Shown here in pieces: positions 19,985-62,615 of a stretch of DNA of 64,000 nt. The stretch lies in the IMG/VR virus record IMGVR_UViG_3300032294_002926; one strand, written 5' to 3'. Origin of the DNA: a virus (taxonomy: Duplodnaviria; Heunggongvirae; Uroviricota; Caudoviricetes). The notes under the pieces were generated by a model, which saw only the letters and a program-made list of their open reading frames with translations, was not told the DNA's origin and searched no databases. A program made the translations under genes and the position numbers. Numbering within the stretch: position 1 is the first letter of the stretch; the number at the start of each line of letters is the position of its first letter.

Positions 19985-20321
19985 AATCATTGAAGAATTT
20001 AAAAATAATGAATGGGAAATAGAAACTCCATCTGGTTGGCAGTCATTTTCTGGTGTCGGTAAAACCATAGAATATGATGAATTTGAAATTCTCACAGAGA
20101 ATGGAAAAAAATTATATTGTGCTGATAAACATATTTTAATAGATGAATTTTGGGGTCAAATATTCTGTGATGAATTATTCACAGGAAGCAAAATTCAAAC
20201 AAAAGATGGAATAGAGAAAATAAAAACAATTAAGAAAACATCTAATATTTGCAATATGTATGATATCCTAGATGTTGAAAATGGAAATATTTTTTATAGC
20301 AATGATATTGTATCACATAAT
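19977..20321 (+). mobile_element. split intein TerL-1, C-fragment (115 aa, ends SHN, Ser+1)
   Basis: Block B CADKH, block F MYDI, block G IVSHN/S. Confidence 0.9.
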
Positions 20322-22268: not shown

Positions 22269-22613
22269 ATGAATTTACCATCAACAGTAATTAAAAATAA
22301 TTCAAATATTAAAATAGAAACTCCATATGGATTTGAGAATTTTTATGGAGTGAATAAAATAGAGAAAGATAGTTATATTCATCTATATTTCACAAATGGT
22401 GAAGAACTTAAATGTTCATTAGATCATCCTTTATCCACAATCGAAGGTATTATAAAAGCAAAAGATTTAGATAAGTACACTGAAGTTTATACAAAAAATG
22501 GTGGATGTTTTTTAAAAAAATCAAAAGTCATTAATAAACCAATTGAACTTTATGACATTGTAAACTCTGGAATCAAACATTTATATTACACAAATAATAT
22601 AATATCTCATAAT
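22269..22613 (+). mobile_element. split intein TerL-3, C-fragment (115 aa, ends SHN, Cys+1)
   Basis: Block B CSLDHP, block F LYDI, block G IISHN/C. Confidence 0.9.
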
Positions 22614-23531
22614 TGCGAATTCTTAGGGTCAATGAATACCCTAATAAATGCAGCAAAATTAAAGAACTTTGTATATGATGATCCGATACAAAGAAATGCC
22701 GGTTTAGATGTTTATGAAGATCCAAAAGAAGATAATAATTATTTAATTACTGTTGATGTTGCGCGTGGTCTCGGAAATGATTATTCTGCATTTATTGTAT
22801 TCGATATCACAAATTTTCCATATAAAGTCATAGCAAAATATAAGAACAATGAAATTAAACCAATGCTGTTTCCCAGTATTATACATGAAGTTGCAAAAGG
22901 ATACAATAATTCATGGGTACTAATTGAAGTTAATGACATTGGGGATCAAGTAGCAAATATTCTACATTTTGATTTGGAATATGACAATATTCTCATGTGT
23001 GCAATGAAAGGTCGAGCAGGTCAAATTGTTGGATCTGGATTTAGTGGTAAAAGATCTCAATTAGGTGTGAGAATGACATCTTCTGTTAAAAAGTTGGGAT
23101 GTTCAAATCTTAAAACACTAATGGAAGATGATAAATTAATTACAAACGATTATGATATCATTTCAGAATTAACAACATTCATTCAAAAACATAATTCATT
23201 TGAAGCAGAAGAAGGAACTAATGATGATCTGGCCATGTGTTTGGTCATTTTCTCTTGGTTGGTTGCACAGGATTATTTCAAAGAAATGACTGATAATGAT
23301 GTAAGAAAAAGAATATATGAGGAACAAAAAAATCAAATAGAACAAGATATGTCACCATTTGGATTTATTTTAGATGGAATAGATGATTCTGAAATATTTG
23401 TAGAAAAAGCAACCGGAGATACGTGGATGAATGCAAATAAAAAAGACCCTAATCAATTATTAGAAGTATGGAATTTAGATGAATATGGTGATGTATCAAA
23501 TGAATGGAATTATATGTGGGATTATAATTAG
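22269..23531 (+). CDS. gp17: terminase large subunit fragment 3: IntC + nuclease domain
   Basis: IISHN|CEFLGS; TVDVARGLGNDYSAF; NDDLAMCLV nuclease motifs. Confidence 0.92.
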   Translation: MNLPSTVIKNNSNIKIETPYGFENFYGVNKIEKDSYIHLYFTNGEELKCSLDHPLSTIEGIIKAKDLDKYTEVYTKNGGCFLKKSKVINKPIELYDIVNSGIKHLYYTNNIISHNCEFLGSMNTLINAAKLKNFVYDDPIQRNAGLDVYEDPKEDNNYLITVDVARGLGNDYSAFIVFDITNFPYKVIAKYKNNEIKPMLFPSIIHEVAKGYNNSWVLIEVNDIGDQVANILHFDLEYDNILMCAMKGRAGQIVGSGFSGKRSQLGVRMTSSVKKLGCSNLKTLMEDDKLITNDYDIISELTTFIQKHNSFEAEEGTNDDLAMCLVIFSWLVAQDYFKEMTDNDVRKRIYEEQKNQIEQDMSPFGFILDGIDDSEIFVEKATGDTWMNANKKDPNQLLEVWNLDEYGDVSNEWNYMWDYN

Positions 23532-26381: not shown

Positions 26382-29321
26382 ATGGCAAAACTTTTTGGGT
26401 TTTCTATTGAGGATAATGAAAAAAAATCCAAATCAATAGTCTCCCCCGTTCCTCAGACAGATGAGGACGGGGTTGATTATTTTGTACAATCAGGATTTTA
26501 CGGACAGTATGTTGATATTGAAGGTGTTTATAGAACTGAATTTGATTTACTACGTAGATACAGAGAAATGGCGTTACACCCTGAGTGTGACTCAGCCATA
26601 GAAGATGTCGTAAATGAAGCAATAGTAAGTGACTTATACGATTCTCCAGTAGAAATTGAATTATCTAATTTAAATGCAAGTGATAAATTAAAATCTATTA
26701 TTAGAGAAGAATTTAAAATCATCAAAGAGATGATGGATTTTGATAGAAAATGTCATGAAATTTTTAGAAATTGGTATGTGGATGGGAGAGTTTATTATCT
26801 AAAAGTCATTGATGTAAAAAATCCTCATGAAGGAATCAAAGAATTGAGATACATTGACCCCATGAAGATGAAACATGTGCGTCAAGAAGTACCACAAAAA
26901 CAGAAGAATAACAGAAAAAACACAATTAATAGATTAAATCTAAACAATAATTTCACAAATACAGAAGTAGTAAGCACAGATATTGAAGAATATTTCATAT
27001 ATTCACCTATGCCGAATTATCCTTTATCATCTTTAAGTAGTGCAGCAAAGGGTAGTATTAAAATTTCTAAAGATGCGATTACTTATTGTACCTCGGGTCT
27101 TGTTGATAGAAATAAAGGAACAATACTTTCATATCTTCATAAAGCAATTAAAGCACTCAATCAACTTCGAATGATTGAAGATTCTCTTGTAATTTACAGA
27201 TTATGTTTAGTTGGAAATACAAGAGTAAAAACTAAAAATGGATATTCTTATATTAAAAATATAAAACCTGGAGATATTGTTTATAGTTATGATAATAGAG
27301 TAAATCATTTGTTAGAAACTAAGGTTTCTAACAAATGGATGACAGGTATTAAACAAACATTTAAAGTCACATCAAAACATCACAATATTATTGGAACTGA
27401 TACTCATCCAATTCTTGTTTATGATACTGTAACTAAAGATGTAAAGTATGTGCCAATTAAAGAATTGGAACCTAAAAGACATTGCTTGACTTATATTAAA
27501 CCGAATGAAACTAATATTCTCACATCTTTCCCAAAAATTAGAGAAAAAGCATTTTCCATTAAAAGTAATTCTTTTTGGTCTTCTTATAATATTAAAGGAA
27601 AGGAAAATATAATTAAAGAAATTTCTAAATCAACAAAAATAAAAAAACATAGAATTCGTAATTTTCTTTATGGTAATCAATCATTAGAGGATGCAAGCGT
27701 ACAACTTTTAGAGGAAAAACTTCCACTTTTAAAAAATACAGAATATGAAGAAAAATATGAAGGTTTATGTAGAAATAAATTAGATCTCCCAAATTATATT
27801 GACGAAGAATTTTCTAGATTATTTGGATTTCTTTTGGGTGATGGATCCATTGGAAAGTATGGAGTATCATTTGCGGAAGGTGAAGATGAAATTCAAAACA
27901 TTTACTATTCAAAATTAATGAAAAAGTTTTTTGGAAATTGTAAAAGAATAAATTCAAAAAGAAAATATAGTAATTATTCTTCATCGAATACACTTGCTTC
28001 AGAATTATTATCAAAGTTGGGATTCGTAAATGGGTCAAAGAAAAAAAGGATTCCATCATGGTTATTCACATCTTCAGACTCGATTAAAAAAGAATTTATT
28101 TTAGGTCTTTTAGATGCAGATGGTCATTACAGAGATTTAGTAAATGGATTTTCTTGTGAGATATCACTGGCAAATAAAGAACTCATTGAAGATATTAAAG
28201 AAATTTGGACTTCAATTGGACTCTGCTCTGGTCATATCCGACATAGAATTAGACCATCAAAAACTAGAATAGTTGGATATGAGACCACACCAAGAATAAT
28301 GCCAGAATCTGAATCTTGGGATTTATATTTAAGTGAATATGAACTACCCAAATTTGAAAAAATTCAAAAAATTGAAATTGATCAAATTGAAGAAGTTTAT
28401 GACATTGAAGTTGAACACGAAAAACATAATTTTGTTGCTAATGGAATTATAGTTCACAATTCAAGAGCTCCTGAACGTCGTATTTTTTATATTGATGTTG
28501 GAAATCTCCCTAAAGTAAAAGCAGAACAATATCTTAAGGAGGTTATGAGTCGTTATAGAAATAAACTTGTTTATGATGCCTCAACAGGTGAAGTAAGAGA
28601 TGATAGGAAGTTTATGAGTATGTTAGAAGATTTTTGGTTACCTCGTCGAGAAGGTGGTAGAGGAACAGAAATCACTACTTTACCTGGTGGTCAAAATCTC
28701 GGAGAACTTTCAGACATTGAATATTTTCAAAAGAAACTTTATAGATCATTAGGTGTACCGGAATCAAGAATTGCTGGGGGTGGTGATGGATTTAATTTAG
28801 GAAGATCTTCAGAAATTTTAAGAGATGAACTCAAGTTTTCAAAATTTGTAGGACGCCTCAGAAAACGTTTCGCAAGAATGTTCAATGACATTCTTCGCAC
28901 ACAATTACTATTAAAAAACATAGTATCAGTCGAAGATTGGAAACAAATGGAGGATCATATTCAATATGATTTTCTTTATGATAATCATTTTGCGGAACTT
29001 AAAGAGGCAGAATTAATACAGAATAGAATAGGTTTAATGACTCAGATAGAACCATATATTGGAAAATATTATTCTACAGAATATATCCGTAAAAAGATTT
29101 TGCGACAGACTGATTCAGAAATTGTTGAATTGGATCTACAAATTGAAGATGAAATTTCAAAAGGAATATTACCAGATCCAAATCAACCTACAGATGAGAT
29201 GGGAAATCCTATTCCAACAGAAAATCCATCTGAACAACCTGCTTTAGGAGAAATTCCTACAGAAGAACCTGCACCAGAAGCACCAAAAATTATCGCAGAA
29301 CCTAAAGGTGGTAAAATATAA
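26382..29321 (+). CDS. gp20: portal protein with contiguous intein
   Basis: LRRYREMALHPECDSAIEDVVNEAI; LVIYRL|...|SRAPERRIFYIDVG; EDFWLPRREGGRGTEITTLPGG. Confidence 0.95.
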   Translation: MAKLFGFSIEDNEKKSKSIVSPVPQTDEDGVDYFVQSGFYGQYVDIEGVYRTEFDLLRRYREMALHPECDSAIEDVVNEAIVSDLYDSPVEIELSNLNASDKLKSIIREEFKIIKEMMDFDRKCHEIFRNWYVDGRVYYLKVIDVKNPHEGIKELRYIDPMKMKHVRQEVPQKQKNNRKNTINRLNLNNNFTNTEVVSTDIEEYFIYSPMPNYPLSSLSSAAKGSIKISKDAITYCTSGLVDRNKGTILSYLHKAIKALNQLRMIEDSLVIYRLCLVGNTRVKTKNGYSYIKNIKPGDIVYSYDNRVNHLLETKVSNKWMTGIKQTFKVTSKHHNIIGTDTHPILVYDTVTKDVKYVPIKELEPKRHCLTYIKPNETNILTSFPKIREKAFSIKSNSFWSSYNIKGKENIIKEISKSTKIKKHRIRNFLYGNQSLEDASVQLLEEKLPLLKNTEYEEKYEGLCRNKLDLPNYIDEEFSRLFGFLLGDGSIGKYGVSFAEGEDEIQNIYYSKLMKKFFGNCKRINSKRKYSNYSSSNTLASELLSKLGFVNGSKKKRIPSWLFTSSDSIKKEFILGLLDADGHYRDLVNGFSCEISLANKELIEDIKEIWTSIGLCSGHIRHRIRPSKTRIVGYETTPRIMPESESWDLYLSEYELPKFEKIQKIEIDQIEEVYDIEVEHEKHNFVANGIIVHNSRAPERRIFYIDVGNLPKVKAEQYLKEVMSRYRNKLVYDASTGEVRDDRKFMSMLEDFWLPRREGGRGTEITTLPGGQNLGELSDIEYFQKKLYRSLGVPESRIAGGGDGFNLGRSSEILRDELKFSKFVGRLRKRFARMFNDILRTQLLLKNIVSVEDWKQMEDHIQYDFLYDNHFAELKEAELIQNRIGLMTQIEPYIGKYYSTEYIRKKILRQTDSEIVELDLQIEDEISKGILPDPNQPTDEMGNPIPTENPSEQPALGEIPTEEPAPEAPKIIAEPKGGKI
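27204..28460 (+). mobile_element. contiguous LAGLIDADG intein in portal (419 aa)
   Basis: CLVGNT start, GTDTHP block B, FGFLLGDG and ILGLLDADG motifs, VYDIEV..VHN/S end. Confidence 0.92.
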
Positions 29322-33492: not shown

Positions 33493-34995
33493 TTATTCTA
33501 AACCATAACAAAGAGTTCCACAATCAAAGATTTTATTATATCCTAATTCTCTTGCTTTTTCATATTCAGTGCAATCGTATGCGCCAATATATTTCTTTTG
33601 AAATTTCATTCGATTAAATCTTTTTAGAAAATGTTTATCCACATAATAATAAGATGGAGAATTTACATGAATTAATTTGAATCCGTTTTTCAAATAAACA
33701 TTTCCTTTCGAGTATCTTCTATCTGCATAAGAAACTATATTTCCAGAATAATTCTGTCTAAACCATTTTAATAATTTACTAAATCCTCCAATTACATTAA
33801 TTCCAATTTTACTAGAAAATCTGGAAAGTTCCCATTCATATTTGGAATTAAATCTAGATTTACAAAAAGTCATTACACACATTAATTCATTTTGATATCT
33901 TAATCCAATTTTTACTTTACTTTTATCCTCACCTTGTATATGATTTTCATTTAGGAACTTATTTTTTTCATAGGTATCTAAAATTACTTTTTGACAATTT
34001 CTTGCATAAATTTTTTGATTTAAATGAAGTTTACTTTTAATAATTGATTTGATTATTTCTTTTTTTAAATTCCATTCATCACTGTAAAACTGTAGCAAAT
34101 CAACTCCTTTTTGTTCACATTCTAATGTTTTCTTTAAATGATATTTTTTATTCTTAATTAAACATTCTTTAGTCTCATACGGTCTGTAGTAATGATAATA
34201 AAGACCATTATATTCAATTGCAAATTTTTTTTCTGGAAGATATATATCTAATTCTTTACCATTTAATAAAGATCTATTTGATTGAATAATTGGACCATCA
34301 TAAAAAGAAGATATAAAATCAAATATCTCTATTTCACTTTTACTTGTTTTTTTAATTTTTCTTTCATATGAATTTGGGTTTTTAGTTTCTATTTTATGAA
34401 TATTAATCCATCTTGAAACTGTAGATTTACTTACGTTTAATTTTTCTGCAATAGTCTCACAAGTGAGTCCACTGTCATAAAGATATTTTAGTTGTTTTTC
34501 GTCATTTAGAATAGTTACACTTAAACTATTTTTTCTTCTTCCATCAAAAAGATCATCTATTTGATGAATTTTTAAATATTTAACAATTGTAATTGTAGAA
34601 ACATCTAATTCTTCTGCAATTTTTTCTATAGATTTTTGAAGAGTAATTCTTTGTTCATATAACCAATCATAATTTTGAAGATCTTTTTGAATTTCCTTTT
34701 TTATCGTTTTATCTTTTCTAGAACAATCTGAGTTTGCATATAATCTAAATCCATTAATAGAATAGGTTTTATCGATGGCACACACTTCTCCACATCCGCA
34801 TTTACACTTAGGTATCTCATTCTCATGAATGTCATGAAGAATTACATATGCTCTGGTTCTTAATGGAATATCTGAATAATAAGAATTCAGAAAAGAAGTA
34901 TTTTGTTCAATTTGATTTCTAATTTCATAATTTAAAGAAACTCGAATAAAATCCGATTTACTCCAATTTTCAGAAATATATTCTTTTAAATTCAT
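33493..34995 (-). mobile_element. free-standing Hef-like/PD-(D/E)XK homing endonuclease with HTH repeats
   Basis: Only long minus-strand ORF; HTH segments (IAEKLNVSKSTVSRW); ELDIYLPEKKFAIEYNGLYYH nuclease motif. Confidence 0.75.
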
Positions 34996-45409: not shown

Positions 45410-47581
45410 ATGACTGTCAATTACGAAATTAAAGGAATGCTCGCCAAACTTTTGGCAACAGAAGATATTATTGTCGAGTGTCAGAATGTTCAAACTGCTT
45501 CTTTTAATGTTAAAACTCGCGTACTAACTCTTCCAATCTGGGAAGCAAGTGATACTGTCGTTGATCTTCTTGTTGCACATGAAGTAGGGCATTCCAGAGA
45601 AACTCCCAGTGACGATTGGTCTAAAGGAACTATAAAAATTCCTGCTCACTTTATGAATGTGGTTGAAGATGCCAGAGTTGAAAAAAAGATGAAGCGTCGT
45701 TATCAGGGTCTAGCAAAAACTTTTATCAATGGATATAAAGAACTATTTGATCAGGATTTTTTCAAAATCGGTGACAAAGATGTAGGAAAGTATAACTTGG
45801 CTGATCGTGCAAATCTTTATTTTAAGATTGGTCATCTTATTGATATTCCGATTAAACAAGGAGAAGAATCCGATATTGTTAAAAAAATTGCAGATTCTGA
45901 AACTTTTAAAGATGTTATGTATGTTTCGGAATTACTTTATAATTACTGTAAACGTGAGATAAATCAATCCCCTACACCTTCTCAAAGTGAATTTGATTTT
46001 TCACAAATTACAGTTGGCGTACAATATATTGATGATGATAGTAATCAACAGGATGTGAATTCTGAATCAAAAACTGAAAATGATGAACAAGAAAAAATTG
46101 ATAAACTCTCACTCAACGATGATTCGAAAAGTGAGTCTGATGAAAATCAAGAAAAATCTGATAAAGATTCTGGGGAATCGGATCAAGATTTTGATAAAGA
46201 ACCTGAAGTTGAAACAATGAATTCATATGAAGAATCATTAGAAAAATTATTGAATACAAGTGGAATTAAAAGTAATTATCTTGAACTACCTCAAGATCTT
46301 GATTTGCAAAAACTGATTATCCCCAATTCAGAAATACATTCTTATTGTGAAAAATTTTGGAAATCCAATGCCAATCCTGAGAATTTTCAAAAATATTCTA
46401 GTAGTTCAGAACAAAATTTTAATGAATTTAAAAGATCTGCTCAAAAAGAAGTAAATTATTTGGTAAAAGAATTTGAGTGTCGCAAATCAGCTGATTCTTA
46501 TTCTAGAACAATGGTATCAAATACAGGAGTTCTTGATTGTAATCAATTACATACATACAAATATAATGATGATCTTTTTAAAAGAATATCTATTACACCA
46601 GATGGTAAAAATCATGGATTGATTTTTGTCTTGGATTGGTCTGGATCTATGTCTAAAACATTACTACCTACAATTAAACAACTTTATAACTTGATATGGT
46701 TCTGTAGAAAAGTATCCATTCCATTTGATGTTTATGCTTTTTCTGATGGATATGGGAAAAAGGACACTTCGGATAGATATCAAATTAAAGATAAAGTGAT
46801 TGAGATTACACCAGATTTTTATATGTTGAATATTCTTACCAGTAAGGTGAATAATTCTGTTTTAAATCAACAATTGAAAAATATCTTTAGAATTGCTGAA
46901 TTTTTTAATCCAGAATATCTGAGTGGACTTCCATTTGATATTGCTAGACAATTAATTCCAAGAAAACTTTTTCTTCATTCCACACCTTTGAACGAGGCAA
47001 TTATTTCATTGCACAAAATAATTCCAGACTTTAAAAATAGAAATAAACTTCAAAAAGTACATTGTATAATTCTTACAGATGGGGAATCAAACGAATCTTG
47101 TTTTCATAAAAAAATAGTTAAAAATGATGTTGAGCAATTTGAAAGACACTCCATTAGATATTATGCTCATTCTAATTATATTCGAGACCGAAAAACGGGG
47201 GCAACATATCTTTTAGATTATAGTAAATCTCCTACAGATGTTTTTCTTAGAAATATTAGAGATAATTTTCCAGATGTGAATTTTATTGGAATTAGATTAT
47301 TAGAAGGTGGTTATATTGGTCATGTTATTAATTCTTATTTGAATCGATCAGAATTAAGTACTGCTTTATCTTATTGGAGTAAAAATAAAACTTTTACTTT
47401 ATCGAATTCAGGATATCACTCATACTTTTTTATTCATTCTTCTCTTCTTTCTAGTGTAGTAAAAACAGAAGATAAAAAAGAAGCATCTAAATCTGAAATT
47501 AAAAATTCATTTATGAAAAATTTAAATGTCAAAAAAATGAACAAAAAGATTTTGAATGATTTTATCAATTTGATTATCTAA
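45410..47581 (+). CDS. CobT-like vWA protein with N-terminal HExxH motif (partner of the CobS-like AAA)
   Basis: AHEVGH; NVVEDARVE; MIDAS VLDWSGSM; ILTDGE. Confidence 0.8.
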   Translation: MTVNYEIKGMLAKLLATEDIIVECQNVQTASFNVKTRVLTLPIWEASDTVVDLLVAHEVGHSRETPSDDWSKGTIKIPAHFMNVVEDARVEKKMKRRYQGLAKTFINGYKELFDQDFFKIGDKDVGKYNLADRANLYFKIGHLIDIPIKQGEESDIVKKIADSETFKDVMYVSELLYNYCKREINQSPTPSQSEFDFSQITVGVQYIDDDSNQQDVNSESKTENDEQEKIDKLSLNDDSKSESDENQEKSDKDSGESDQDFDKEPEVETMNSYEESLEKLLNTSGIKSNYLELPQDLDLQKLIIPNSEIHSYCEKFWKSNANPENFQKYSSSSEQNFNEFKRSAQKEVNYLVKEFECRKSADSYSRTMVSNTGVLDCNQLHTYKYNDDLFKRISITPDGKNHGLIFVLDWSGSMSKTLLPTIKQLYNLIWFCRKVSIPFDVYAFSDGYGKKDTSDRYQIKDKVIEITPDFYMLNILTSKVNNSVLNQQLKNIFRIAEFFNPEYLSGLPFDIARQLIPRKLFLHSTPLNEAIISLHKIIPDFKNRNKLQKVHCIILTDGESNESCFHKKIVKNDVEQFERHSIRYYAHSNYIRDRKTGATYLLDYSKSPTDVFLRNIRDNFPDVNFIGIRLLEGGYIGHVINSYLNRSELSTALSYWSKNKTFTLSNSGYHSYFFIHSSLLSSVVKTEDKKEASKSEIKNSFMKNLNVKKMNKKILNDFINLII

Positions 47582-47678: not shown

Positions 47679-48572
47679 ATGACTAATTTGACTTCTGTTC
47701 TTGATGAAACCTCTATCAAAGAACTTATCACTTACTATGGCACTAAAATTACATCTTCTGATATTAAAGGTTATTGTGCCTCTCGCAGTTTGAGTTATCA
47801 GACTATTACTAAAAAACTAGAACCTTTTAAAACCTCTCGTGGATGTTGGAATCTTGAAGTGACTCCAGAACAAATTGAAAGTCTTGAAAAATCATACAAT
47901 GCACCAACGGAAGTTTTGGATTCAATTAAAATCTTGGATGCAGAACAAGATAATCTGATACCTCGTAAAGATCCAAACTTTGTTGCCTTTGGAAATTTTT
48001 CAGATATTAAGAAAGTTATTAAATCTAATTTGTTTTATCCAACTTTCATTACAGGTCTTTCTGGAAATGGTAAAACATTTAGTGTCGAACAGGCATGTGC
48101 TCAGTTGAAACGTGAAATAATTCGAGTCAATATTACAATTGAAACCGATGCCGATGATCTTTTGGGTGGATTTCGAATGATTGCAGGTGAAACTGTTTGG
48201 TCTAATGGACCTGTGGTAGAAGCGATGCAACGTGGTGCGATTCTTCTATTGGATGAATGTCTTGATGAAAATCAAGAAGTTCTTGTAGGGACAGTTGATA
48301 ATTATGTTTCAATGAAACTTTCTGATATGGAATTTAATAAACAATATCCAGTGGTTAGTTTCAATATGAAAACTGGTGAATTGGAGAATGACTCTGGTTT
48401 CATTATTTCCGATAAGGATGATGATATCTACGAAGTTGAACTTGAGGATGGTCGCACAATTAGACTTAATTCAAAACATCCATTCATTGTGCATAATGAA
48501 GATGGTACATTTTCAGAAAAAACAATTTCTGATGGTCTTAGTATTGGACAGAATGTAGTATCTTTCACTTAA
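47679..48572 (+). CDS. cobS: CobS/MoxR-like AAA ATPase, N-half + IntN
   Basis: GLSGNGKT Walker A; ETDADDLLGG; AILLLDE then CLDENQEVLV. Confidence 0.88.
   Translation: MTNLTSVLDETSIKELITYYGTKITSSDIKGYCASRSLSYQTITKKLEPFKTSRGCWNLEVTPEQIESLEKSYNAPTEVLDSIKILDAEQDNLIPRKDPNFVAFGNFSDIKKVIKSNLFYPTFITGLSGNGKTFSVEQACAQLKREIIRVNITIETDADDLLGGFRMIAGETVWSNGPVVEAMQRGAILLLDECLDENQEVLVGTVDNYVSMKLSDMEFNKQYPVVSFNMKTGELENDSGFIISDKDDDIYEVELEDGRTIRLNSKHPFIVHNEDGTFSEKTISDGLSIGQNVVSFT
48258..48569 (+). mobile_element. split intein CobS, N-fragment (104 aa, acidic)
   Basis: Block A CLDENQEV; VVSFN..TGELE; block B LNSKHPF; stop at 48570. Confidence 0.9.
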
Positions 48573-48601
48573 GATTGAATCGCATAATTATAATGCTCTT
48601 T

Positions 48602-48628
48602 ACCGAAGTTATTCTAAATAACTTCGGT
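48602..48628 (+). promoter_or_regulatory. perfect 12-bp hairpin containing late-promoter-like CTAAATA
   Basis: ACCGAAGTTATT-CTA-AATAACTTCGGT, 11 nt before the endonuclease ATG. Confidence 0.6.
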
Positions 48629-48639
48629 TATTTATACAT

Positions 48640-50076
48640 ATGGAATTCACATTTATAAAAACTTCTAAAACTTTTACAAACTTTAAGTCCTTTTTAAATC
48701 ATGTAAGATGTTACTCTAAAAAACATAATATTGATCTTAATTTTTTATTGAAAGAAAATTATGATCACTATTGTCCAATAAAAAACAAAATATGTAAACA
48801 TTGTTATTCTGAATGTCCATATAACGGTTATTATAAAGGTTACGAAAATCCTTGCTTCTCTTCAGAGTGTTATAAAAAATTCGTCTCATATAATAGAGAT
48901 TATTATTCCAATAAAATTAATTCAGGGTATTATGATCTTTATGATGATAAAAAATATAAATGTTTTTTCAGTAAAAGATATTTTGATATTACTAATGAGA
49001 AAATAACTACAAATAACATTTTTTTTGTGGATAAAAAATGCGTTATATGTAATTCTTTAATGTCAAATATATCATTATTTTCAAGAGATGTTAATAATCA
49101 AACTTGTTCTAATAAATGTAAACATAAAATAATATCTTCAAAAACAAGAAAAAGATGTTTATACAATTTAGAAGAAAATATATTCAAAAGCGATAATGAG
49201 TTAAATCATTATATCTTTAAGAATAAAAAATACCCTTTTAATGATAAGTATGAGATGAATAATACTTTGATTGAAAAATTTAAAAATAAACCTGAATTTC
49301 AAATACCACCAAAAAAAAGTATTGTATATTTTTCTAAAAAATATAATTTATATTTTTTTAATTTAAAAGGATCTAAGATAAGGAGTAGTCTCTATAGATA
49401 TCTGGGTAGTGATTCTGAATATTTAAATTATCATATTGAAAATAATTTAGGTAAAACTGAATGCCCTGGATGCAAAAAGAAAATTTTATTTCAAGACGTT
49501 TTTGGTAAAAAATATATTGATACTAAATATTGTTCATCTTCTTGTTATTGGGATTCGTCTGTCGGGAGAGTTATACCCGAAAATGTAAGAAAAAAGCATT
49601 CTGAATCAATGAAAAAAATTATTTTTGATGGTAAGTATACACCTACTATCACAAATAGTTGGTGTAAATCAAAAACAAAGGTTATAATTAATGGAAAAGA
49701 TGAATTTGTTAGATCCTCTTGGGAAGCTGTTTTTTGGGCACTTAATCAAGATCTTATGTATGAAGTTGTTAGAATAAAATATGTCGATATCAATAAAAAA
49801 CAAAGAAATTATATTGTTGATTTTTATTCAAAAGAAAGAAAATGTTTATATGAAATAAAACCTAAAAGTGAGAAACAGAAACCAAATAACATATTAAAAG
49901 AAAAATATGCTTTAAAATACTGTAAAGAAATGAACATGAGTTATGTTATTATTGATGAGAATTATTTTATTGAAAAAATTAAAGAAGTGGATTGGAATAA
50001 TATGAACCAATTTATTTCCGAAGAAACTATTGTAAAATTTAAAAAAGGAATCGGACCATTTCAAAAACTGTCATAA
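48640..50076 (+). mobile_element. free-standing endonuclease (CxxC repeats + TnsA-like PD-(D/E)XK domain)
   Basis: Several CxxC/CSxxC motifs; RSSWE..YE..IKY..RNYIVDFY..LYEIKP; sits between the intein halves. Confidence 0.78.
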
Positions 50077-50110
50077 CACCCTCCCCTCAGTAAAATCTGA
50101 ATGATATACT
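50055..50110 (+). promoter_or_regulatory. palindromic box ACCATTT-CAAA-AACTGTC plus extended -10 TGaTATACT
   Basis: Copy 5 of 5; 32-nt spacing; precedes the cobS C-half. Confidence 0.65.
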
Positions 50111-50137
50111 TTAATAGTAATCAAGTTATTTCTCAAC

Positions 50138-50260
50138 ATGAAAAATTTTAAAACATCTGAAATTAAGTCAATTCGTTTTGTTGGTAAAGGTCGTGTTCGT
50201 AATCTTACTGTAAATAAGAATCATACATTCCTTACTGCTAATGGAATTGTGACTCATAAT
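50138..50260 (+). mobile_element. split intein CobS, C-fragment (41 aa, basic, Cys+1)
   Basis: IKSIRFVG..NLTVNKNHTFLTANGIVTHN/C. Confidence 0.9.
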
Positions 50261-50836
50261 TGCGATCTAGCGAGTAATAAGATTTTGTGCCTTCAATCGG
50301 TTTTAGAAGGGAAAGGTGTTTATCTGAAAAAAATTAATAAATTTATTCAACATTCTGATGGATTCAATATTTTTGCCACAGCAAACACGAAAGGTAAAGG
50401 TTCTGAGGACGGTAGATTTATTGGTACAAACGTCCTGAACGAAGCTTTTCTTGAGCGTTTCTCCATTACTCTGGAGCAACAATATCCTTCGATTACAATT
50501 GAACAAAAAATTCTAGAAAAATTTATTCCTGAAGATTCTAGAGATGAAGCATTGATCTTCTCTCAAAGACTTGTCGATTGGGCCGACATTATCAGAAAGA
50601 CATTTTATGATGGTGGAATTGACGAGATTATTAGTACCCGTCGTCTAGTTCATATAATGAAGGCATATTCTATTTTTGGGAATAAAGAAAAAGCGATCAA
50701 AATTTGTATTAATCGCTTTGATCAGGAAACAAAAGAATCATTTTTGACTCTCTATGATAAAATAGATGCTGATTTTAATCTCTCAAGTGATCAAACGCCC
50801 GAACTCGAAAATCCAACTCCTGATCTTCCATTTTAA
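50138..50836 (+). CDS. cobS: IntC + CobS/MoxR-like AAA ATPase, C-half
   Basis: IVTHN|CDLASNKILCLQ; ATANTKGKG; NEAFLERF; ISTRRLV. Confidence 0.88.
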   Translation: MKNFKTSEIKSIRFVGKGRVRNLTVNKNHTFLTANGIVTHNCDLASNKILCLQSVLEGKGVYLKKINKFIQHSDGFNIFATANTKGKGSEDGRFIGTNVLNEAFLERFSITLEQQYPSITIEQKILEKFIPEDSRDEALIFSQRLVDWADIIRKTFYDGGIDEIISTRRLVHIMKAYSIFGNKEKAIKICINRFDQETKESFLTLYDKIDADFNLSSDQTPELENPTPDLPF

Positions 50837-52441: not shown

Positions 52442-52972
52442 TTGAATATATTTGTAACTTCTTTATGTCCTGCTAAAAGTGCAATTGTGCTCCCTGATCG
52501 TCATATAACAAAAATGCCAGTTGAATCTGTTCAAATGCTCTCAATAGTGGCATCATCAAAGTGGGGATACGGATATGGAAATCTTCATAAAAAAGATGGC
52601 ACACCTTATTCAACTCAAAAAGGTGCATTTAGGAATCATCCCTGTACCAAATGGGTTTCAGAATCAATTCACAATGCCTTTTGGTTGATTCAACATGGAA
52701 TGCACCTATGCAATGAGTTTGAATTGCGCTATAATAAGAAACATGCCTGTTTAGACCCTTTAGAAGAGGCATATCACATTTTCCCAAAAGGCAAAATCGA
52801 AGAAGTTACTTATTTTACTCGTGCAATGCCAGATCAATGGAAAATGGATAAAAGTATTGATACCTTTGAAGCATATAAAAGATATATTTCATCTAAACCA
52901 TGGGTGAAAAATAATTATCTTCGGATCACTTCAAGAAAACCAGATTGGATAAATTATTATGGAACTAATTGA
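52442..52972 (+). CDS. pyrimidine-dimer DNA glycosylase (DenV-like) family protein
   Basis: MNIF..D.HITKMPVESVQML; NHPCTKW; FELRYNKKH. Confidence 0.6.
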   Translation: MNIFVTSLCPAKSAIVLPDRHITKMPVESVQMLSIVASSKWGYGYGNLHKKDGTPYSTQKGAFRNHPCTKWVSESIHNAFWLIQHGMHLCNEFELRYNKKHACLDPLEEAYHIFPKGKIEEVTYFTRAMPDQWKMDKSIDTFEAYKRYISSKPWVKNNYLRITSRKPDWINYYGTN

Positions 52973-53918
52973 ACCTAAACCCTTTCTATGGGTAGAGCGT
53001 TGGGCACCAGAATCTGTTGAAGATTTAATTTTAACTAGTAATGTTAAAGACTTTTTTTTGAATGTTGCCCAACAAGGACAACTCAATCAGAATTTAATTC
53101 TTCAAGGAACTCAGGGGTGTGGTAAAACTCAAACAATTAAAACTCTTTGTAAAATCACAAAACAAGATGTTTTATTTTTAAATGGATCTTCTGAAGGAAG
53201 ATATTTGGATACAATTCGAAATCAAGTAATTAACTTTGGAACTACTGTTTCAATGTTTAATGATAAGAAAAAAGTTGTATTTTTTGACGAATTTGATGGC
53301 ACAACTAACGATGTAATGTTATGTCTTCGTGGCGTCATTGAACAACTTCATAATAATGTATCTTTTATTTTTACCTGCAATAACTTAAACAAAATTATTG
53401 AACCAATTCAATCTAGATGTGTGATTCTAAAATACACACCTATTTCAAAGAATGACAAACCTCAAATGATGTCAGATATCTTTAAAAGAGTATCTTATAT
53501 CTTAAATCAAGAAAATATCGAATTTGATAAGAAAATCATTTTAGAATTAATCAAGAGTACATTCCCAGATACAAGAAAACTGATAAATATACTTCAAAGA
53601 TATAGTTTATCTGGAAAAATTGACTCTGATATTCTTTCATTGCATTCTGATGTTTCTATAGATAAACTTATTAAATTTTTAAAAGATAAAAATTTTACAG
53701 AAGTTCGTAAATGGGTTGTTGAAAATTTAGATAATGATTCTTCTTTAATTTTGCGTAAAATTTATGATGCTTGCTACGAGTATCTTTTACCTCAGTCTAT
53801 TCCTCCTGCTGTTCTTATTATCGCTAAGTATCAGTATCAGTCATCTTTTTGCTCGGATCAAGAAATAAATACATTAGCTGCATTAACTGAAATTATGGTA
53901 GAATGCGAATGGAAATAA
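52959..53918 (+). CDS. gp44: clamp loader large subunit
   Basis: FLWVERWAP; GTQGCGKT; FFDEFD; PIQSRC; DQEIN. Confidence 0.92.
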   Translation: MELIEPKPFLWVERWAPESVEDLILTSNVKDFFLNVAQQGQLNQNLILQGTQGCGKTQTIKTLCKITKQDVLFLNGSSEGRYLDTIRNQVINFGTTVSMFNDKKKVVFFDEFDGTTNDVMLCLRGVIEQLHNNVSFIFTCNNLNKIIEPIQSRCVILKYTPISKNDKPQMMSDIFKRVSYILNQENIEFDKKIILELIKSTFPDTRKLINILQRYSLSGKIDSDILSLHSDVSIDKLIKFLKDKNFTEVRKWVVENLDNDSSLILRKIYDACYEYLLPQSIPPAVLIIAKYQYQSSFCSDQEINTLAALTEIMVECEWK

Positions 53919-57723: not shown

Positions 57724-57949
57724 TAATGTAATTATTACAGAAATTCAAGAAATTGATGCGGAATTAGGTGATCCAAATTGTAAATTAATTAAACCCTATC
57801 AAATAGATGAGAATGCACATCTATCTCCATGGCCAGATGAAGAGTTGACAGAACAAAAAGAAATGATGATTCACTCTGATAGCATCTTGACTATTGTAGA
57901 CCCCAAACCTGAAATCATTGAAAAGTATTTAGAGTTGACTAAAACATGA
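57686..57949 (+). CDS. conserved hypothetical protein
   Basis: ELGDPNCKLIKPY..LSPWP; overlaps its neighbours. Confidence 0.7.
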   Translation: MTKTVKCLLLKVDNVIITEIQEIDAELGDPNCKLIKPYQIDENAHLSPWPDEELTEQKEMMIHSDSILTIVDPKPEIIEKYLELTKT

Positions 57950-59985
57950 AATTTTATACGAATATAAAAACAATTGGTGATTATATTTTCTACAGAGGTT
58001 ATCAAGATAAAATAGAAATTAAAGACAAAATTAAATATCAACCAACTTTTTTTATTCGTTCTAAAATTAACACAGAATATAAAAACTTGAATGGAGATTA
58101 TCTTGCTCCAATTCAACCTGGAACAATTTCAGAAAGTAAAAGTTTCATTCAAAAGTATAAAGACGTTGAAGGATTTGAGTATTTTGGTAATGAAAATCCA
58201 ATTTATCAATTTATTTCTGAAAATTTCTCAGGTTCAATTGAATATGATATTTCTCAGGTTAAACTGTATATTTTGGATATTGAAACAACCGCAGAAAATG
58301 GTGCAATAAATGCACAAGAAGCGAATGAAGAGATTCTTCTTATTACAATTCAAGATTTTAATAAAAATATTTCTTATACTTGGGGTAGTAGACCATTCAC
58401 AGAAAAAATAGATAACCATGTTTATTATGAATGTGAAAATGAAGTAAAACTTTTACAGAAATTTTTAACATTCTGGGAAAATAATTATCCTGATATTTTG
58501 ACTGGATGGAATTGTATAAATTTTGACATTCCTTATATTATTAATAGAATTTCTAAAAACTTTGGTGAAAATGAAGCAAAAAGACTTTCTGTCTGGAAAA
58601 AAATTTCATGTAGAGAGTTTGTTATTCAAGATAGAGTTGAATATGAATATGATTTATATGGAATTACCACATTAGATTATTTACAATTATTTAAAAAATT
58701 TGCTTTTATTAGTACTGAGAATAATAGATTAGATACAGTAGCAAAAGAAGTTCTAAATGAACAAAAACTAAATCACGATGAATATGATACTTTTAAAGAT
58801 TTTTACACAAATAATTTTGATTTATTTGTAAAGTATAATGTTCAAGATTGTAACCTAATCAGTAGATTTGAAAGAAAATTGAGTCTTATACAACTCGCTT
58901 TTACTCTTGCTTATCAGGCAAAGGTTAACATTCAAGATGTATTCTATCAAGGTAGAATGTGGGATGGTATAATTTATAATTATTTAATTCAAGATAAAAT
59001 TGTAATTCCCTCTAAAAAGAAGACAGGCGAAAAGAAAGAAAAATTTAAAGGGGCACATGTAAAAGAACCTCAGATAGGAAAATTTAAATATGTCTGTAGT
59101 TTTGACCTCGCATCACTGTATCCTTCGTTAATTCGTACTTATAATATAAGTCCGGAGACACTAGTTAAAGATAGAAATATTGAGGTTTCAATTAATTCTA
59201 TTATAGATAATAAATTTGAAAATAAATATCCAGACTATACGATTTGTTCGAATGGGTCCATGTACACCAAAAAAGTGCAAGGATTTCTTCCCAAAATTAT
59301 GGAAAAGATGTTTAATGAAAGAACTGTCTATAAAAAGAAAATGCTTGCGGCACAATCTTTATATGAGACAAATCCATCTCAAAAATTAGAAGAGGAAATT
59401 TCTACATACAAAAACTATCAACATGCACTTAAAATTTGCCTCAACTCTGCTTTTGGTTCTTTAGGTAACGAATATTTTAGATTTTATGATATTCGAAATG
59501 CTGAAGCAATTACTTACTCAGGTCAAACTGTGATTAAATGGATTGAAAAAGATCTTAATTCTTACTTGAATACTGTTTCTGGTACTAAAGATGAAGATTT
59601 AGTCATAGCAATGGATACAGATAGCGTTCTGGGGGGTAGTGTCATTAAAGTAAATAATATAAATATGACAATCTCTGATTTTTATGAGATGATTGATTTT
59701 AATTATTTAAAATATGATGAATTTAATCAAAAATATGTAAAAAAAGTTTCTGAATATATTACACCATCTTTATCTTTTGATAAAAAAATCCAAAATAAAA
59801 GTATTAAATATGTCATGAAACATAAAGTTAAGAAAAGATTATATGAAATTAAAGTAAATGGAAAATCTGTTAAAGTTACAGAAGATCATTCAATTATAGT
59901 TAAAAATAAGAAAACAAATGAAATATATCCAGTGAAACCTCAAGATTTATCACCACAGGATCATTATGTAATTTACATCAAATAA
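57946..59985 (+). CDS. gp43: family B DNA polymerase, N-part + IntN
   Basis: LDIET exonuclease; SFDLASLYPS motif A; KICLNSAFG motif B; AMDTD then SVLGGS. Confidence 0.93.
   Translation: MKFYTNIKTIGDYIFYRGYQDKIEIKDKIKYQPTFFIRSKINTEYKNLNGDYLAPIQPGTISESKSFIQKYKDVEGFEYFGNENPIYQFISENFSGSIEYDISQVKLYILDIETTAENGAINAQEANEEILLITIQDFNKNISYTWGSRPFTEKIDNHVYYECENEVKLLQKFLTFWENNYPDILTGWNCINFDIPYIINRISKNFGENEAKRLSVWKKISCREFVIQDRVEYEYDLYGITTLDYLQLFKKFAFISTENNRLDTVAKEVLNEQKLNHDEYDTFKDFYTNNFDLFVKYNVQDCNLISRFERKLSLIQLAFTLAYQAKVNIQDVFYQGRMWDGIIYNYLIQDKIVIPSKKKTGEKKEKFKGAHVKEPQIGKFKYVCSFDLASLYPSLIRTYNISPETLVKDRNIEVSINSIIDNKFENKYPDYTICSNGSMYTKKVQGFLPKIMEKMFNERTVYKKKMLAAQSLYETNPSQKLEEEISTYKNYQHALKICLNSAFGSLGNEYFRFYDIRNAEAITYSGQTVIKWIEKDLNSYLNTVSGTKDEDLVIAMDTDSVLGGSVIKVNNINMTISDFYEMIDFNYLKYDEFNQKYVKKVSEYITPSLSFDKKIQNKSIKYVMKHKVKKRLYEIKVNGKSVKVTEDHSIIVKNKKTNEIYPVKPQDLSPQDHYVIYIK
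59623..59982 (+). mobile_element. split intein gp43, N-fragment (120 aa, Ser1, basic, no Cys)
   Basis: SVLGGSVI..TISDFY; YVMKHKVKKRLY; block B VTEDHS. Confidence 0.9.
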
Positions 59986-60025: not shown

Positions 60026-60148
60026 ATGAATCTTATATATGATGATACTTTTGAAGTAAATGATTTAGGTGAGCAAGAAGAATGGGTGTATGATATTGAA
60101 GTTGAAGATAACCATAATTTTTTTGCTAATGATATATGTGTTCATAAT
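60026..60148 (+). mobile_element. split intein gp43, C-fragment (41 aa, acidic, Ser+1)
   Basis: VYDIEVEDNHNFFANDICVHN/S. Confidence 0.92.
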
Positions 60149-60964
60149 AGTTGCTTTTTAAATTTTGAACCAATTGTAAACAAAGTATTTAAGGACAAGA
60201 GTGTATCAGAAGAAAAAATCATTCACTTTTTAATTAAAGTCTGTGATGATGCAATGCAAACTTTTATTGATAAATCTTTTAATAAATTATGTGACATTAC
60301 AAATGCATATGAAAATTGTCTTCATATGAAAAGAGAAAAAATATGTTCATCTGCTCTCTGGCGAAGTAAAAAAAATTATATTCTTAATGTATGGGACAAT
60401 GAAGGTGTTTTTTATTCAGAACCAAAAATAAAGATGTCTGGCATCGAAGCAGTAAAAACATCAACGCCATCATATTGTAGAACCGCAATTAGAGATGTAA
60501 TAAAAATTATTATGAACGGTGAACAAGATGAATTAATTGATTTTGTAAATTCTATTAAAAAAGAATTTAAGACTCTCTCCCCAGATCAAATTGCTTTTCC
60601 TAGAGGAGTAACTGATTTACGAAAGTTTTATTCACCAAACGATATCTATGTAAAAGGTACTCCTATACATGTGAGAGGTTCCCTTCTTTATAATTATCAC
60701 ATAGAAAAAAATAATTTGGAAAATAAGTATTCTTTGATAAGAAGTGGGGAAAAAATTAAATATATTTACTTAAAAAAACCAAATACAATAGGAGAAAATG
60801 TTATTTCTTTTATTCAAAAATTTCCAAAAGAACTTAATCTTGACAAATACATAGATTATGATCTACAATTTGAAAAGTCTTTTTTGGAACCAATTAAAAG
60901 TTTAGTTGAAATAATTGGATGGAAAACTGAAAAAGTTGTGGACTTAGAATCATTTTTTATTTAA
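60026..60964 (+). CDS. gp43: IntC + DNA polymerase C-part
   Basis: CVHN|SCFLNF; LHMKRE; KKNYILNV; KMSGIEAVKTSTP; GTPIHVRG. Confidence 0.93.
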   Translation: MNLIYDDTFEVNDLGEQEEWVYDIEVEDNHNFFANDICVHNSCFLNFEPIVNKVFKDKSVSEEKIIHFLIKVCDDAMQTFIDKSFNKLCDITNAYENCLHMKREKICSSALWRSKKNYILNVWDNEGVFYSEPKIKMSGIEAVKTSTPSYCRTAIRDVIKIIMNGEQDELIDFVNSIKKEFKTLSPDQIAFPRGVTDLRKFYSPNDIYVKGTPIHVRGSLLYNYHIEKNNLENKYSLIRSGEKIKYIYLKKPNTIGENVISFIQKFPKELNLDKYIDYDLQFEKSFLEPIKSLVEIIGWKTEKVVDLESFFI

Positions 60965-60974
60965 AGAGGATACA

Positions 60975-61241
60975 ATGAATTTTCTGGAAGATATAATCCA
61001 AGAAATTGGATGTGAGTACGCACAAATCGCAACAGATTTAAAAGAGGGTGAGAATTATGTAGATACTGGGTCTTATATTTTTAATGCACTTGTTTCGGGT
61101 AGTATATTTGGTGGATTTAGTAGTAATAAAATTACTACAATTTCTGGAGCAAGCAGCACAGGAAAGTGTGCCAGAGGGTCGGAAAAAATTATTATCTACT
61201 GTGATGAAGAAACTGCTGATAAAATAAAAAAGATGATTTAA
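60975..61241 (+). CDS. uvsX: RecA-like recombinase N-part + IntN
   Basis: VDTGSYIFNALVSGSIFGG..SGASSTGK then CARGSE. Confidence 0.9.
   Translation: MNFLEDIIQEIGCEYAQIATDLKEGENYVDTGSYIFNALVSGSIFGGFSSNKITTISGASSTGKCARGSEKIIIYCDEETADKIKKMI
61167..61238 (+). mobile_element. split intein UvsX, N-fragment (24 aa, Cys1)
   Basis: CARGSEKIII block A after the Walker A Lys; stop at 61239. Confidence 0.85.
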
Positions 61242-61412: not shown

Positions 61413-61805
61413 ATGGTTGAACTTGAACTTACATATGAACAACTTTATAAAATTTATGGCAATGGGAAACATGAAGAACCTTGTGAAGTTACTGATGAAA
61501 TTTATGTAAAAACTCCTACTGGAATAACTAGAATAAATGAAGTTGTAACAAAACATAACAATGAAGTCATTCGTTTGGATTTTCATGATGGTGATAGATT
61601 TGAATGTTCTGTAAATCACATCTTTCATGATTATAATTCAGGTACCGAAGTAAATGCACTCGATGCTAAAGATATTACATCTACTTACGGTAAAAAAACA
61701 GTAGTTGAAAGAACACCTATTGGATTTGAAAATGTATATGACATTTCTATAGAATATCCTCACTGGTATATTGCAAATTCAAAATCAGGTATCTACCATC
61801 ATAAT
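61413..61805 (+). mobile_element. split intein UvsX, C-fragment (131 aa, Thr+1)
   Basis: Block B CSVNH, block F VYDIS, ends YHHN/T. Confidence 0.88.
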
Positions 61806-62615
61806 ACTTTTTTCGCTTTAGCTGTAATTAAAAATTTCTTGGATCAAAATCCAGAAGGATATTGTTTATATTTTGATACTGAAGCAGCGATTACAAAATC
61901 ATTACTTCAAAGCAGAGGATTGGATATAAGTAGAGTAGTTGTTTTAAATGTTCTGACTATTGAAGAATTCAGAACAAAGGCTTTAAAAGCAGTGGATCTC
62001 TACATGAAAAAACCTGTCAAAGAAAGAAGACCTTGTTTTTTTGTTCTTGATAGTTTAGGAATGCTCTCTTCAAACAAAGAAATTGGAGACGCCTTGGCAG
62101 AAAAAGATACAAGAGATATGACAAAGGCATCTTTGATTAAAGGTGCTTTTAGAATGCTCACTCTTAAGTTGGGACAGGCAAATATTCCAATGATAGTTAC
62201 AAATCACGTTTATGCTAATGTTGGGGGGTATGGCGCTTCTACAGTTCAAAGTGGAGGTTCTGGAGTACTTTATTCATCTTCTACAATCATCGAGTTGTCC
62301 AAATCAAAAGAGAAAGACGGTAAAGAAACGATTGGAGTTATAATCAAAGCAAAAACATTTAAATCAAGATTGAGTAAAGAAAATCAAGAAGTTGAAATTC
62401 GTCTATATTATGATGAAAGAGGTCTAGATCGTTATTATGGTTTACTAGAACTTGGTGAAACTGGTGAATTATGGAAAAGTGTTTCTAATAGATATGAGTT
62501 CCAAGGCAAAAAAATGTTTGCAAAAGAAATTCTGAGAAATCCTGAGCAATATTTTACTCAAGATGTAATGGAAAAATTAGATCAAATTGCAAAAGAACAA
62601 TTTAGTTATGGATGA
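61413..62615 (+). CDS. uvsX: IntC + RecA-like recombinase C-part
   Basis: IYHHN|TFFAL; YFDTEAA; VLDSLGML; IVTNHVY; QSGGSG. Confidence 0.92.
   Translation: MVELELTYEQLYKIYGNGKHEEPCEVTDEIYVKTPTGITRINEVVTKHNNEVIRLDFHDGDRFECSVNHIFHDYNSGTEVNALDAKDITSTYGKKTVVERTPIGFENVYDISIEYPHWYIANSKSGIYHHNTFFALAVIKNFLDQNPEGYCLYFDTEAAITKSLLQSRGLDISRVVVLNVLTIEEFRTKALKAVDLYMKKPVKERRPCFFVLDSLGMLSSNKEIGDALAEKDTRDMTKASLIKGAFRMLTLKLGQANIPMIVTNHVYANVGGYGASTVQSGGSGVLYSSSTIIELSKSKEKDGKETIGVIIKAKTFKSRLSKENQEVEIRLYYDERGLDRYYGLLELGETGELWKSVSNRYEFQGKKMFAKEILRNPEQYFTQDVMEKLDQIAKEQFSYG

Follow-up and report, generated by a model that had tools for sequence, protein, structure and literature searches.

Introduction

The fractured genes described in 2009 (Dassa 2009, PMC2677866), in which the two halves of a split intein are attached to separately encoded fragments of a host protein, affect gp41, IMPDH, DnaE, NrdA, NrdJ, ligase and terminase, with gp41-1, NrdJ-1, IMPDH-1 and NrdA-2 among the examples. 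They carry GIY-YIG or Vsr-like nucleases, and the Vsr-like family is present in half of them. A later fractured gene, the split PolB intein with an HNH endonuclease of the Pseudomonas jumbo phage MIJ3 (PMC6892783), showed that the type of nuclease can vary. Inteins located at a Walker B motif are known from cyanobacterial DnaX (PolIII gamma/tau; PMC4760082) and mycobacteriophage TerL1-e (PMC5050341). Here, we describe a fractured gene for a CobS-like, MoxR-type AAA+ ATPase (cobS) in a stretch of 64,000 nucleotides (nt), hereafter the window, from IMG/VR record IMGVR_UViG_3300032294_002926. The window lies within a contig of at least 236 kb, with ~ 30% G+C, from an uncultured large T4-like marine myovirus. 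The host gene is interrupted directly after its Walker B motif by a split intein, whose halves flank a gene for a TnsA-like nuclease. Judged by its sequence and its relatives, the fractured cobS is real and very probably functional, and we put at roughly 85% the probability that it encodes a trans-spliced ATPase together with a homing nuclease cassette.

Organisation of the fractured cobS gene

The locus consists of three open reading frames (ORFs) on the plus strand. The first (47679-48572, 297 amino acids (aa)) encodes the CobS-like N-extein (residues 1-193; 47679-48257), which ends in AILLLDE and is followed by a 104-aa N-intein (IntN; 48258-48572) that begins with Cys194 (Cys1) and terminates at a TAA stop codon. 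The N-extein matched Pfam AAA_5 with 48.3 bits (cut-off 22) and PHROG 249, and contains a Walker A motif, GNGKT, from residue 129 and a Walker B motif, LLLDE, at residues 189-193 (48243-48257). The second ORF (48640-50076, 478 aa) is a free-standing gene matching PHROG 15427, 'endonuclease'. The third (50138-50836, 232 aa) starts with a 41-aa C-intein (IntC; 50138-50260) that ends in IVTHN and is directly continued by CDLASN, i.e. Cys+1 and a CobS-like C-extein of 191 aa plus the stop codon (50261-50836); this extein also matched PHROG 249. Each ORF occupies its own frame, and the spacers between them measure 67 nt and 61 nt, so the arrangement is explained neither by read-through nor by a single sequencing error.

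The N fragment covers positions 15-202 of the PHROG 249 (phage CobS) profile and the C fragment covers positions 202-364; the exteins therefore abut at a single profile position. In Pfam, the C fragment matched CbbQ_C and the intein C-end. Splicing is predicted to yield a 384-aa product with the junction LLLDE-CDLASN (junction peptide LLLDECDLASNK). We refer to the gene as CobS-like only, in the sense of PHROG 249 and the AAA_5/CbbQ_C type, to which its sequence conforms. Cobaltochelatase CobS proper (TIGR01650 equivalog) was rejected, as the intact relative P0034, described below, scores 74.7 against a cut-off of 558.55.

The split intein

The residue set of class 1 inteins (Cys1, block B His, block F, block G His-Asn and Cys+1) is complete in the window: C194, H267 in block B (NSKH), NLTVNKNHTF in block F, IVTHN in block G, and C+1. 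The set is likewise complete in all 30 family members: besides Cys1 and Cys+1, each has the block B His (within xxKHPF or similar), NLTVxKNHTF as block F and THN in block G. IntC scored 35.9 bits with TIGR01443 (intein_Cterm; cut-off 15.6). From Cys194, IntN covered the whole TIGR01445 (intein_Nterm) profile (residues 194-271) with 24.1 bits against a cut-off of 24.5. Pfam Intein_splicing (PF14890) aligned with residues 207-285, scoring 27.7 on the fragment and 46.4 on the contiguous relative P0177 (cut-off 35.8).

The split point coincides with the canonical endonuclease-insertion loop. The net charges of IntN and IntC are -13 and +7, respectively; charge complementarity is an established property of natural split inteins and has been noted for fractured-gene loci (Dassa 2009, PMC2677866). 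IntN is homologous to the contiguous mini-inteins in P0200, P0091, P0116 and P0177. An IMG/VR search with IntN alone gave no match.

We also observed intein sites two or three residues off the DE in four CobS-like N fragments (P0042, P0043, P0048 and P0051), where the intein is located three residues after DE (DEVDR/C and EELSA/C, the slash marking the extein-intein junction) or before it (GIPIV/C and GSVLL/C). The insertion site seems to wander inside the Walker B strand.

The TnsA-like nuclease

The C-terminal portion of the free-standing nuclease is a PD-(D/E)xK domain (approximately residues 320-468; 49597-50043) with E362, D394, E405 and K407 as its catalytic residues. Pfam PF08722 (Tn7_TnsA-like_N) matched residues 375-440 with 32.9 bits, above the gathering score of 26.5. 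The N-terminal ~ 310 aa contain three conserved Cys4 modules (C52/C55/C72/C77, C134/C137/C156/C160 and C275/C278/C298/C302), and this Cys-rich region is presumably DNA-binding. Ten full-length homologues, 48-73% identical, retain the three modules as well as the motifs SSWE, IVDF and YEIKP of the C-terminal domain; in a set of 31 more distant homologues, conservation of each of the four catalytic residues is 90% or higher.

Searching the PDB with the nuclease, by sequence or by profile, returned spurious matches only, and TnsA was reached by fold comparison alone. The AlphaFold (AF2) model of the nuclease has a predicted local distance difference test score (pLDDT) of 86, and its top three Foldseek matches are all TnsA. 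In VIA-align, TnsA chain 1t0f_B gave Z 9.6 with a root-mean-square deviation of 2.8 over 123 aa, and the other TnsA match gave Z 8.9 (1f1z/1t0f); Vsr (1cw0) and I-Bth0305I (3r3p) followed with 6.1 and 5.5. By its profile match and its modelled fold, the protein is a member of Pfam's TnsA-like family, distinct from the Vsr-like/EDxHD nucleases. Assignment to the latter was rejected, as the sequence contains no ED.HD and has no Vsr or DUF559 match in Pfam at E up to 0.1. Tn7 transposase TnsA proper, within a Tn7-type transposon, was likewise discarded, since there are no TnsB/TnsC-type or other transposase genes among the annotated ORFs of the window.

The association of this nuclease family with broken inteins extends well beyond cobS. 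Scanning IMG/VR with an alignment of the family, we found 55 loci, nearly all of them flanked on both sides by intein halves. The hosts are mostly superfamily 2 (SF2) helicases split at ..SN/CH, and the others include gp44, cobS, terminase and a PhoH-like gene. In the sequence databases, there are at least 50 fractured genes with nucleases of the TnsA-like family. In the phage collection, homologues of the nuclease domain stand beside the terminase genes of T4-like coliphages, and others occur in Campylobacter phages and Lak megaphages.

A separate arrangement was observed in P0027 (611 aa; cluster mate P0188, 158 aa), the middle fragment of an SF2 helicase. It starts with the remainder of an intein ending in ..LHHN/SGKS, at the P-loop site, and after VDE/C an IntN is fused in frame to a TnsA-like nuclease domain. 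By its sequence, this helicase is doubly interrupted and carries an IntN-nuclease fusion.

Empty, contiguous and fractured alleles

Querying exhaustively with the N fragment in HMMER, and clustering the matches at 50% identity, we obtained three kinds of match. The first is P0034, an uninterrupted CobS of 385 aa whose identity with the window exteins is 92% (N) and 96% (C) and which is colinear across the junction, which reads LLLDE-T-DLASN (Thr at +1), compared to LLLDE-C-DLASN in the window after splicing. The second comprises ~ 15 more clusters, mostly of 290-326 aa, of CobS-like N fragments ending in an IntN of the window type. The third includes several gp44 clamp loaders of 451-469 aa, recognised as such by the Gp44_lid and RFC profiles, which carry a contiguous mini-intein of 141-152 aa from the window family at their own Walker B DE/C. 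A targeted search for longer proteins added P0200, a 591-aa CobS with a contiguous mini-intein at the window site, in which only ~ 4 residues separate the end point of the window IntN from the start point of IntC. Together, P0034, P0200 and the loci of the window type show that empty, contiguous and fractured cobS alleles all exist.

In IMG/VR, we found three syntenic fractured cobS loci, L001 (= L002), L003 and L004, which, like the window, keep all three ORFs intact. Dozens of unannotated fractured cobS genes are present in the sequence databases. The fracture is a minority state, given that the best 80 cobS matches from IMG/VR and the best 80 from metagenomes are all uninterrupted. Scans of IMG/VR and metagenomes with P0034 found no close empty-site DNA, just intact cobS with identity of at most 73%. 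No close relative of the window was found in the phage collection; its cobS aligned to that of cyanophages and pelagiphages with ~ 70% DNA identity in two pieces that skip the cassette.

The gp44 proteins provide a second view of the same transition. P0177, a gp44 with a contiguous intein, clusters at 90% with two split products (P0185 and P0186), an N part of 214 aa and a C part of 249 aa. They are 97-99% identical to it outside a stretch of ~ 35 intein residues ahead of the split point and a few residues beyond it. As read from these sequences, such a pattern would be expected if the nuclease gene had entered a contiguous mini-intein and co-converted its flanks. We also observed gp44 fractured at Walker B in the IMG/VR loci L007 (1839-4875), L013, L016 and L019, with inteins of the window family and related TnsA-like nucleases. 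The gp44 gene of the window itself (52959-53918) is uninterrupted and reads FFDEFDG.

These results bear out the first-pass annotation of the window, which had been made from the sequence alone. It had read the locus as a fractured CobS/MoxR-type AAA+ gene, as the abutting PHROG 249 halves and the colinear P0034 confirm. Its split intein placed right after the Walker B DE, with Cys+1 next, corresponds to the AILLLDE/C and THN/CDLASN junctions, and its coordinates, lengths and junction residues were all exact. The TnsA-like character that it gave to the free-standing endonuclease agrees with the PF08722 score above threshold and with TnsA as the best fold match, and IMG/VR, where it had proposed looking for cobS inteins, yielded the three syntenic loci.

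Leader hairpin of the nuclease gene

The 5′ leader of the nuclease gene contains a 12-bp hairpin on the plus strand (48602-48628; fold z-score -5.1). It includes TCTAAATA (48613-48620), which differs by a single mismatch from TATAAATA, the late promoter of T4 type. The hairpin was also flagged as terminator-like. L001, L003 and L004 have hairpins of similar strength, with differing stem sequences and a perfect TATAAATA in the loop, and in all four loci the outer helix pairs with the start-codon region of the nuclease. A scan for sigma-70 promoters remained at background level. The same element has been described for 15 out of 16 nucleases of fractured genes, as well as for Aeh1 mobE (Dassa 2009, PMC2677866). 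By analogy, we suggest that the hairpin would block translation from read-through transcripts and allow it from late transcripts that start inside the hairpin. The leader hairpin of the nuclease in L007 has a folding energy of -47 kcal/mol.

Proposed mechanism

We propose that the CobS-like ATPase is translated as two polypeptides, and that the acidic IntN and the basic IntC would associate into one HINT domain. Splicing would follow the class 1 pathway, in which an N-S acyl shift at Cys194 is followed by acyl transfer to Cys+1, by cyclisation of the C-terminal Asn in ..THN and by an S-N shift that seals the bond. The product would be the 384-aa ATPase with the Walker B region LLLDE-C-D, whose ATP site would stay interrupted without splicing. 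The gene between the halves would encode a homing endonuclease, with the TnsA-like PD-(D/E)xK domain behind the Cys-rich N-terminal region. Its substrates in mixed infections would be cobS alleles without the cassette, whether empty or carrying a contiguous mini-intein, and donor-templated repair would copy IntN, the nuclease and IntC into the cut allele. The hairpin with the late-promoter box probably limits translation of the nuclease to late transcripts.

We must also note the points that weigh against this mechanism. The layout of the locus, its homologies and conservation, the presence/absence polymorphism and the nuclease fold are observed; trans-splicing, DNA cleavage and its target, and regulation are steps that we infer. 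On the fragments, TIGR01445 and Pfam Intein_splicing remain slightly under their curated cut-offs, and Asn replaces the usual Thr in block B (NSKH). The target site and the co-conversion tracts are known at the protein level only. The N-terminal 310 aa of the nuclease, folded alone (pLDDT 73), have no recognisable fold, the best Z among 48,161 chains being 3.2, and the late-promoter box of the window carries its one mismatch. Finally, although synonymous differences are proportionally fewer in the cassette (0.52-0.57) than in the host genes (0.66-0.80), these sites are near saturation, which makes the values only suggestive of a cassette younger than its hosts.

Selection, mobility and alternative explanations

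Between the window and L001, the ratio of nonsynonymous to synonymous substitution rates (dN/dS) is 0.10 in both IntN and IntC, 0.17 in the nuclease and 0.14-0.20 in the exteins, which indicates purifying selection and the maintenance of all three products. The aa identity of the cassette (83%, 73% and 83%) exceeds that of the exteins (62% and 68%) and of the neighbouring genes (42-67%). Among the four loci, the inteins and cassettes group as window with L001 and L003 with L004, whereas the host genes are roughly equidistant. This discordance, together with the empty allele that is 92-96% identical to the exteins, indicates that the cassette was gained or lost after the host lineages had diverged.

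The alternative that survives best, unlikely as we consider it, is a fossil cassette, in which the split intein still splices, the phage needing its CobS, while the nuclease is inactive or domesticated and inheritance is vertical only. Such a history would agree with the identity of just 51-55% between the nucleases of the two cobS cassette subgroups, with the imperfect late-promoter box of the window, and with the presence in the same window of split inteins that have no nuclease between their halves (PolB, TerL and UvsX); cleavage by the nuclease is, moreover, a prediction. However, the nuclease dN/dS of 0.17 extends over 478 codons, and its catalytic E/D/ExK residues are nearly invariant. 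In addition, the existence of so similar an intact allele means that the presence or absence of the cassette changed recently, and the relationships of the cassettes are at odds with the distances between the host genes.

A second alternative, which appears improbable, is non-covalent assembly, with the intein halves serving as affinity handles without splicing, as in the fragmented NrdA of phage Aeh1. There is thus a precedent (PMC3045599) for a phage enzyme that a mobile element has broken up and whose parts come together again with no splicing, and the block B Asn could be taken in the same sense. Nevertheless, Cys1, the block B His, the penultimate His, the terminal Asn and Cys+1 are present in every locus and N-fragment cluster examined, the dN/dS of the intein is 0.10, and an unspliced HINT domain of 145 aa at the Walker B strand would occupy the ATP site. 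A cobS pseudogene wrecked by nuclease insertion, whose loss might be tolerated for a phage CobS-like protein without proven function, or an assembly artefact can both be rejected, as four independent contigs, and many protein clusters of independent origin, have the three-ORF layout, both exteins are under purifying selection, and the ORFs have their own start codons, three frames and conserved, structured spacers.

A trans-spliced ATPase with a mobile nuclease cassette is our preferred explanation. Regarding the wider history of the intein, the gp44 and CobS AAA+ hosts are non-orthologous and their inteins closely similar, so at least one host switch must have occurred. In the intein tree (104 columns), the inteins of cobS and of gp44 are interleaved, with support too weak to count the switches; its strongly supported branches are compatible with a single origin each for the gp44 and cobS inteins. 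We tentatively consider, as an idea with the odds somewhat against it, that one intein lineage has specialised on the Walker B motif (hhhhDE/x-D) of AAA+ ATPases and moved among non-orthologous genes, namely gp44, CobS-like and other MoxR-like ones. The TnsA-like nucleases might then form a dedicated 'intein-breaking' homing family that recognises the coding DNA of the mini-intein, not the host gene, and converts contiguous inteins into fractured genes wherever that intein has spread.

Other genes and interrupted loci in the window

The cobS cassette is neighboured by a cobT-like gene, DUF3310 and gp45. The CobT-like gene (45410-47581, plus strand) matched PHROG 459 over its full length (E 1.9e-233) and encodes an HExxH metallopeptidase motif and a VWA-type region. 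It lies directly upstream of cobS, as the usual partner, and its position is syntenic in L001, L003 and L004. Other recognisable genes of the window encode the baseplate wedge, sheath, portal, major head protein, gp44/gp45, SbcCD, PolB and UvsX. A 2404-aa ORF (3662-10876; PHROG 358) with no function assigned adjoins the baseplate wedge genes.

Several further genes of the window are interrupted. The family B polymerase PolB is encoded in two ORFs, 57946-59985 and 60026-60964, with 40 nt between them. An intein N-part (Pfam Intein_splicing, residues 570-675; block B TEDH) closes the first, and the second opens with a 41-aa C-part that ends in CVHN/S; this split intein has Ser+1 and lacks an intervening nuclease gene. 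TerL is split as well, its ORFs (19977-22259 and 22269-23531) lying 9 nt apart, and additionally harbours, at residues ~ 255-652, a contiguous intein that includes a LAGLIDADG domain; the initial ~ 115 aa of the second ORF, with block B (SLDHP) and ending in ..ISHN/C, look like part of an atypically split intein with a short N-part. Just upstream of TerL, 18941-19984 encodes a DUF559/Vsr-like nuclease with a zf-BED finger, and Pfam separates this true DUF559 nuclease from the TnsA-like nuclease at 48640-50076.

UvsX is apparently fractured at the P-loop, with an 88-aa ORF (60975-61241) that ends in ..GASSTGK/C and 23 further residues, and a 400-aa ORF (61413-62615) in which ~ 131 aa with block B (SVNHIF), ending in ..IYHHN/T, stand ahead of the UvsX profile. 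The intein is thus atypically split, and the gap of 170 nt holds no nuclease ORF. In the portal protein gp20 (26382-29321, 979 aa), residues ~ 291-693 form a contiguous intein with a LAGLIDADG endonuclease domain (51.4 bits with Intein_splicing). Immediately behind the major head protein gene, the minus strand carries a 500-aa HNH/HTH homing-endonuclease-like gene (33493-34995), the only large minus-strand ORF in the region.

Comparison with known systems

The fractured-gene arrangement itself has been known since 2009; what is new is the cobS host and a nuclease family undescribed in this role. The first-pass annotation had proposed both, and its view has held so far: neither CobS or cobalt chelatase as an intein host, nor TnsA or a TnsA-like protein with an intein or as a phage homing endonuclease, was found in the searchable literature, which is weak evidence, as subscription journals are mostly outside it and so is InBase. 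The hosts and nucleases listed by Dassa 2009 include neither.

Phage cobS is usually labelled 'auxiliary metabolic'. Its fracture extends fractured genes beyond enzymes of DNA synthesis and repair and implies that the gene matters enough to phages to harbour a selfish element. With one intein family in empty, contiguous and fractured states in two AAA+ hosts, the gene-breaking model of 2009 becomes directly testable. If a TnsA-like branch of PD-(D/E)xK enzymes acts in homing, it would link the nucleases of Tn7-type transposases to intein mobility, and it may yield new site-specific nucleases. The cobS intein is canonically split, strongly charge-complementary and of the Cys1/Cys+1 type, and it resides with at least three other split inteins in one phage, a candidate set for orthogonal protein ligation.

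Compared to the fractured genes of Dassa 2009 (PMC2677866), the window has the same order of N-extein-IntN, short spacer, free-standing nuclease gene and IntC-C-extein on one strand, also in a T4-like marine phage. Its IntN and IntC lengths are inside the reported ranges of 88-105 aa and 33-54 aa, and it shares the hairpin with a TATAAATA late-promoter box ahead of the nuclease start. It differs in its host, a CobS-like MoxR-type ATPase and not an enzyme of DNA synthesis or repair, in its nuclease, which is TnsA-like and not GIY-YIG or Vsr-like, and in the 3′ end of the nuclease gene, which is separated from IntC by the 61-nt gap and does not overlap it. The fractured gene of MIJ3 differs from the window in its HNH nuclease and its DNA polymerase host.

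Among nucleases, TnsA (PDB 1f1z and 1t0f) provides the closest solved fold and has the metal-binding pattern E...D...ExK in common with the window protein. The likeness is confined to the catalytic domain, as the N-terminal Cys-rich region is unrelated, and the proposed role is homing in an intein, not transposition. The homing endonucleases I-Bth0305I/EDxHD ('Vsr-like') and I-Ssp6803I (PD-(D/E)xK) have the same broad restriction-endonuclease-like fold; with their lower Z values, I-Bth0305I and Vsr are more distant members of the same superfamily. In terms of insertion position, the cobS intein agrees with those of DnaX and TerL1-e, all being inserted in a P-loop/AAA+ ATPase at its Walker B motif or immediately behind it. 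Those inteins are, however, contiguous and reside in other host proteins, whereas the window family occupies phage gp44 and CobS-like proteins.

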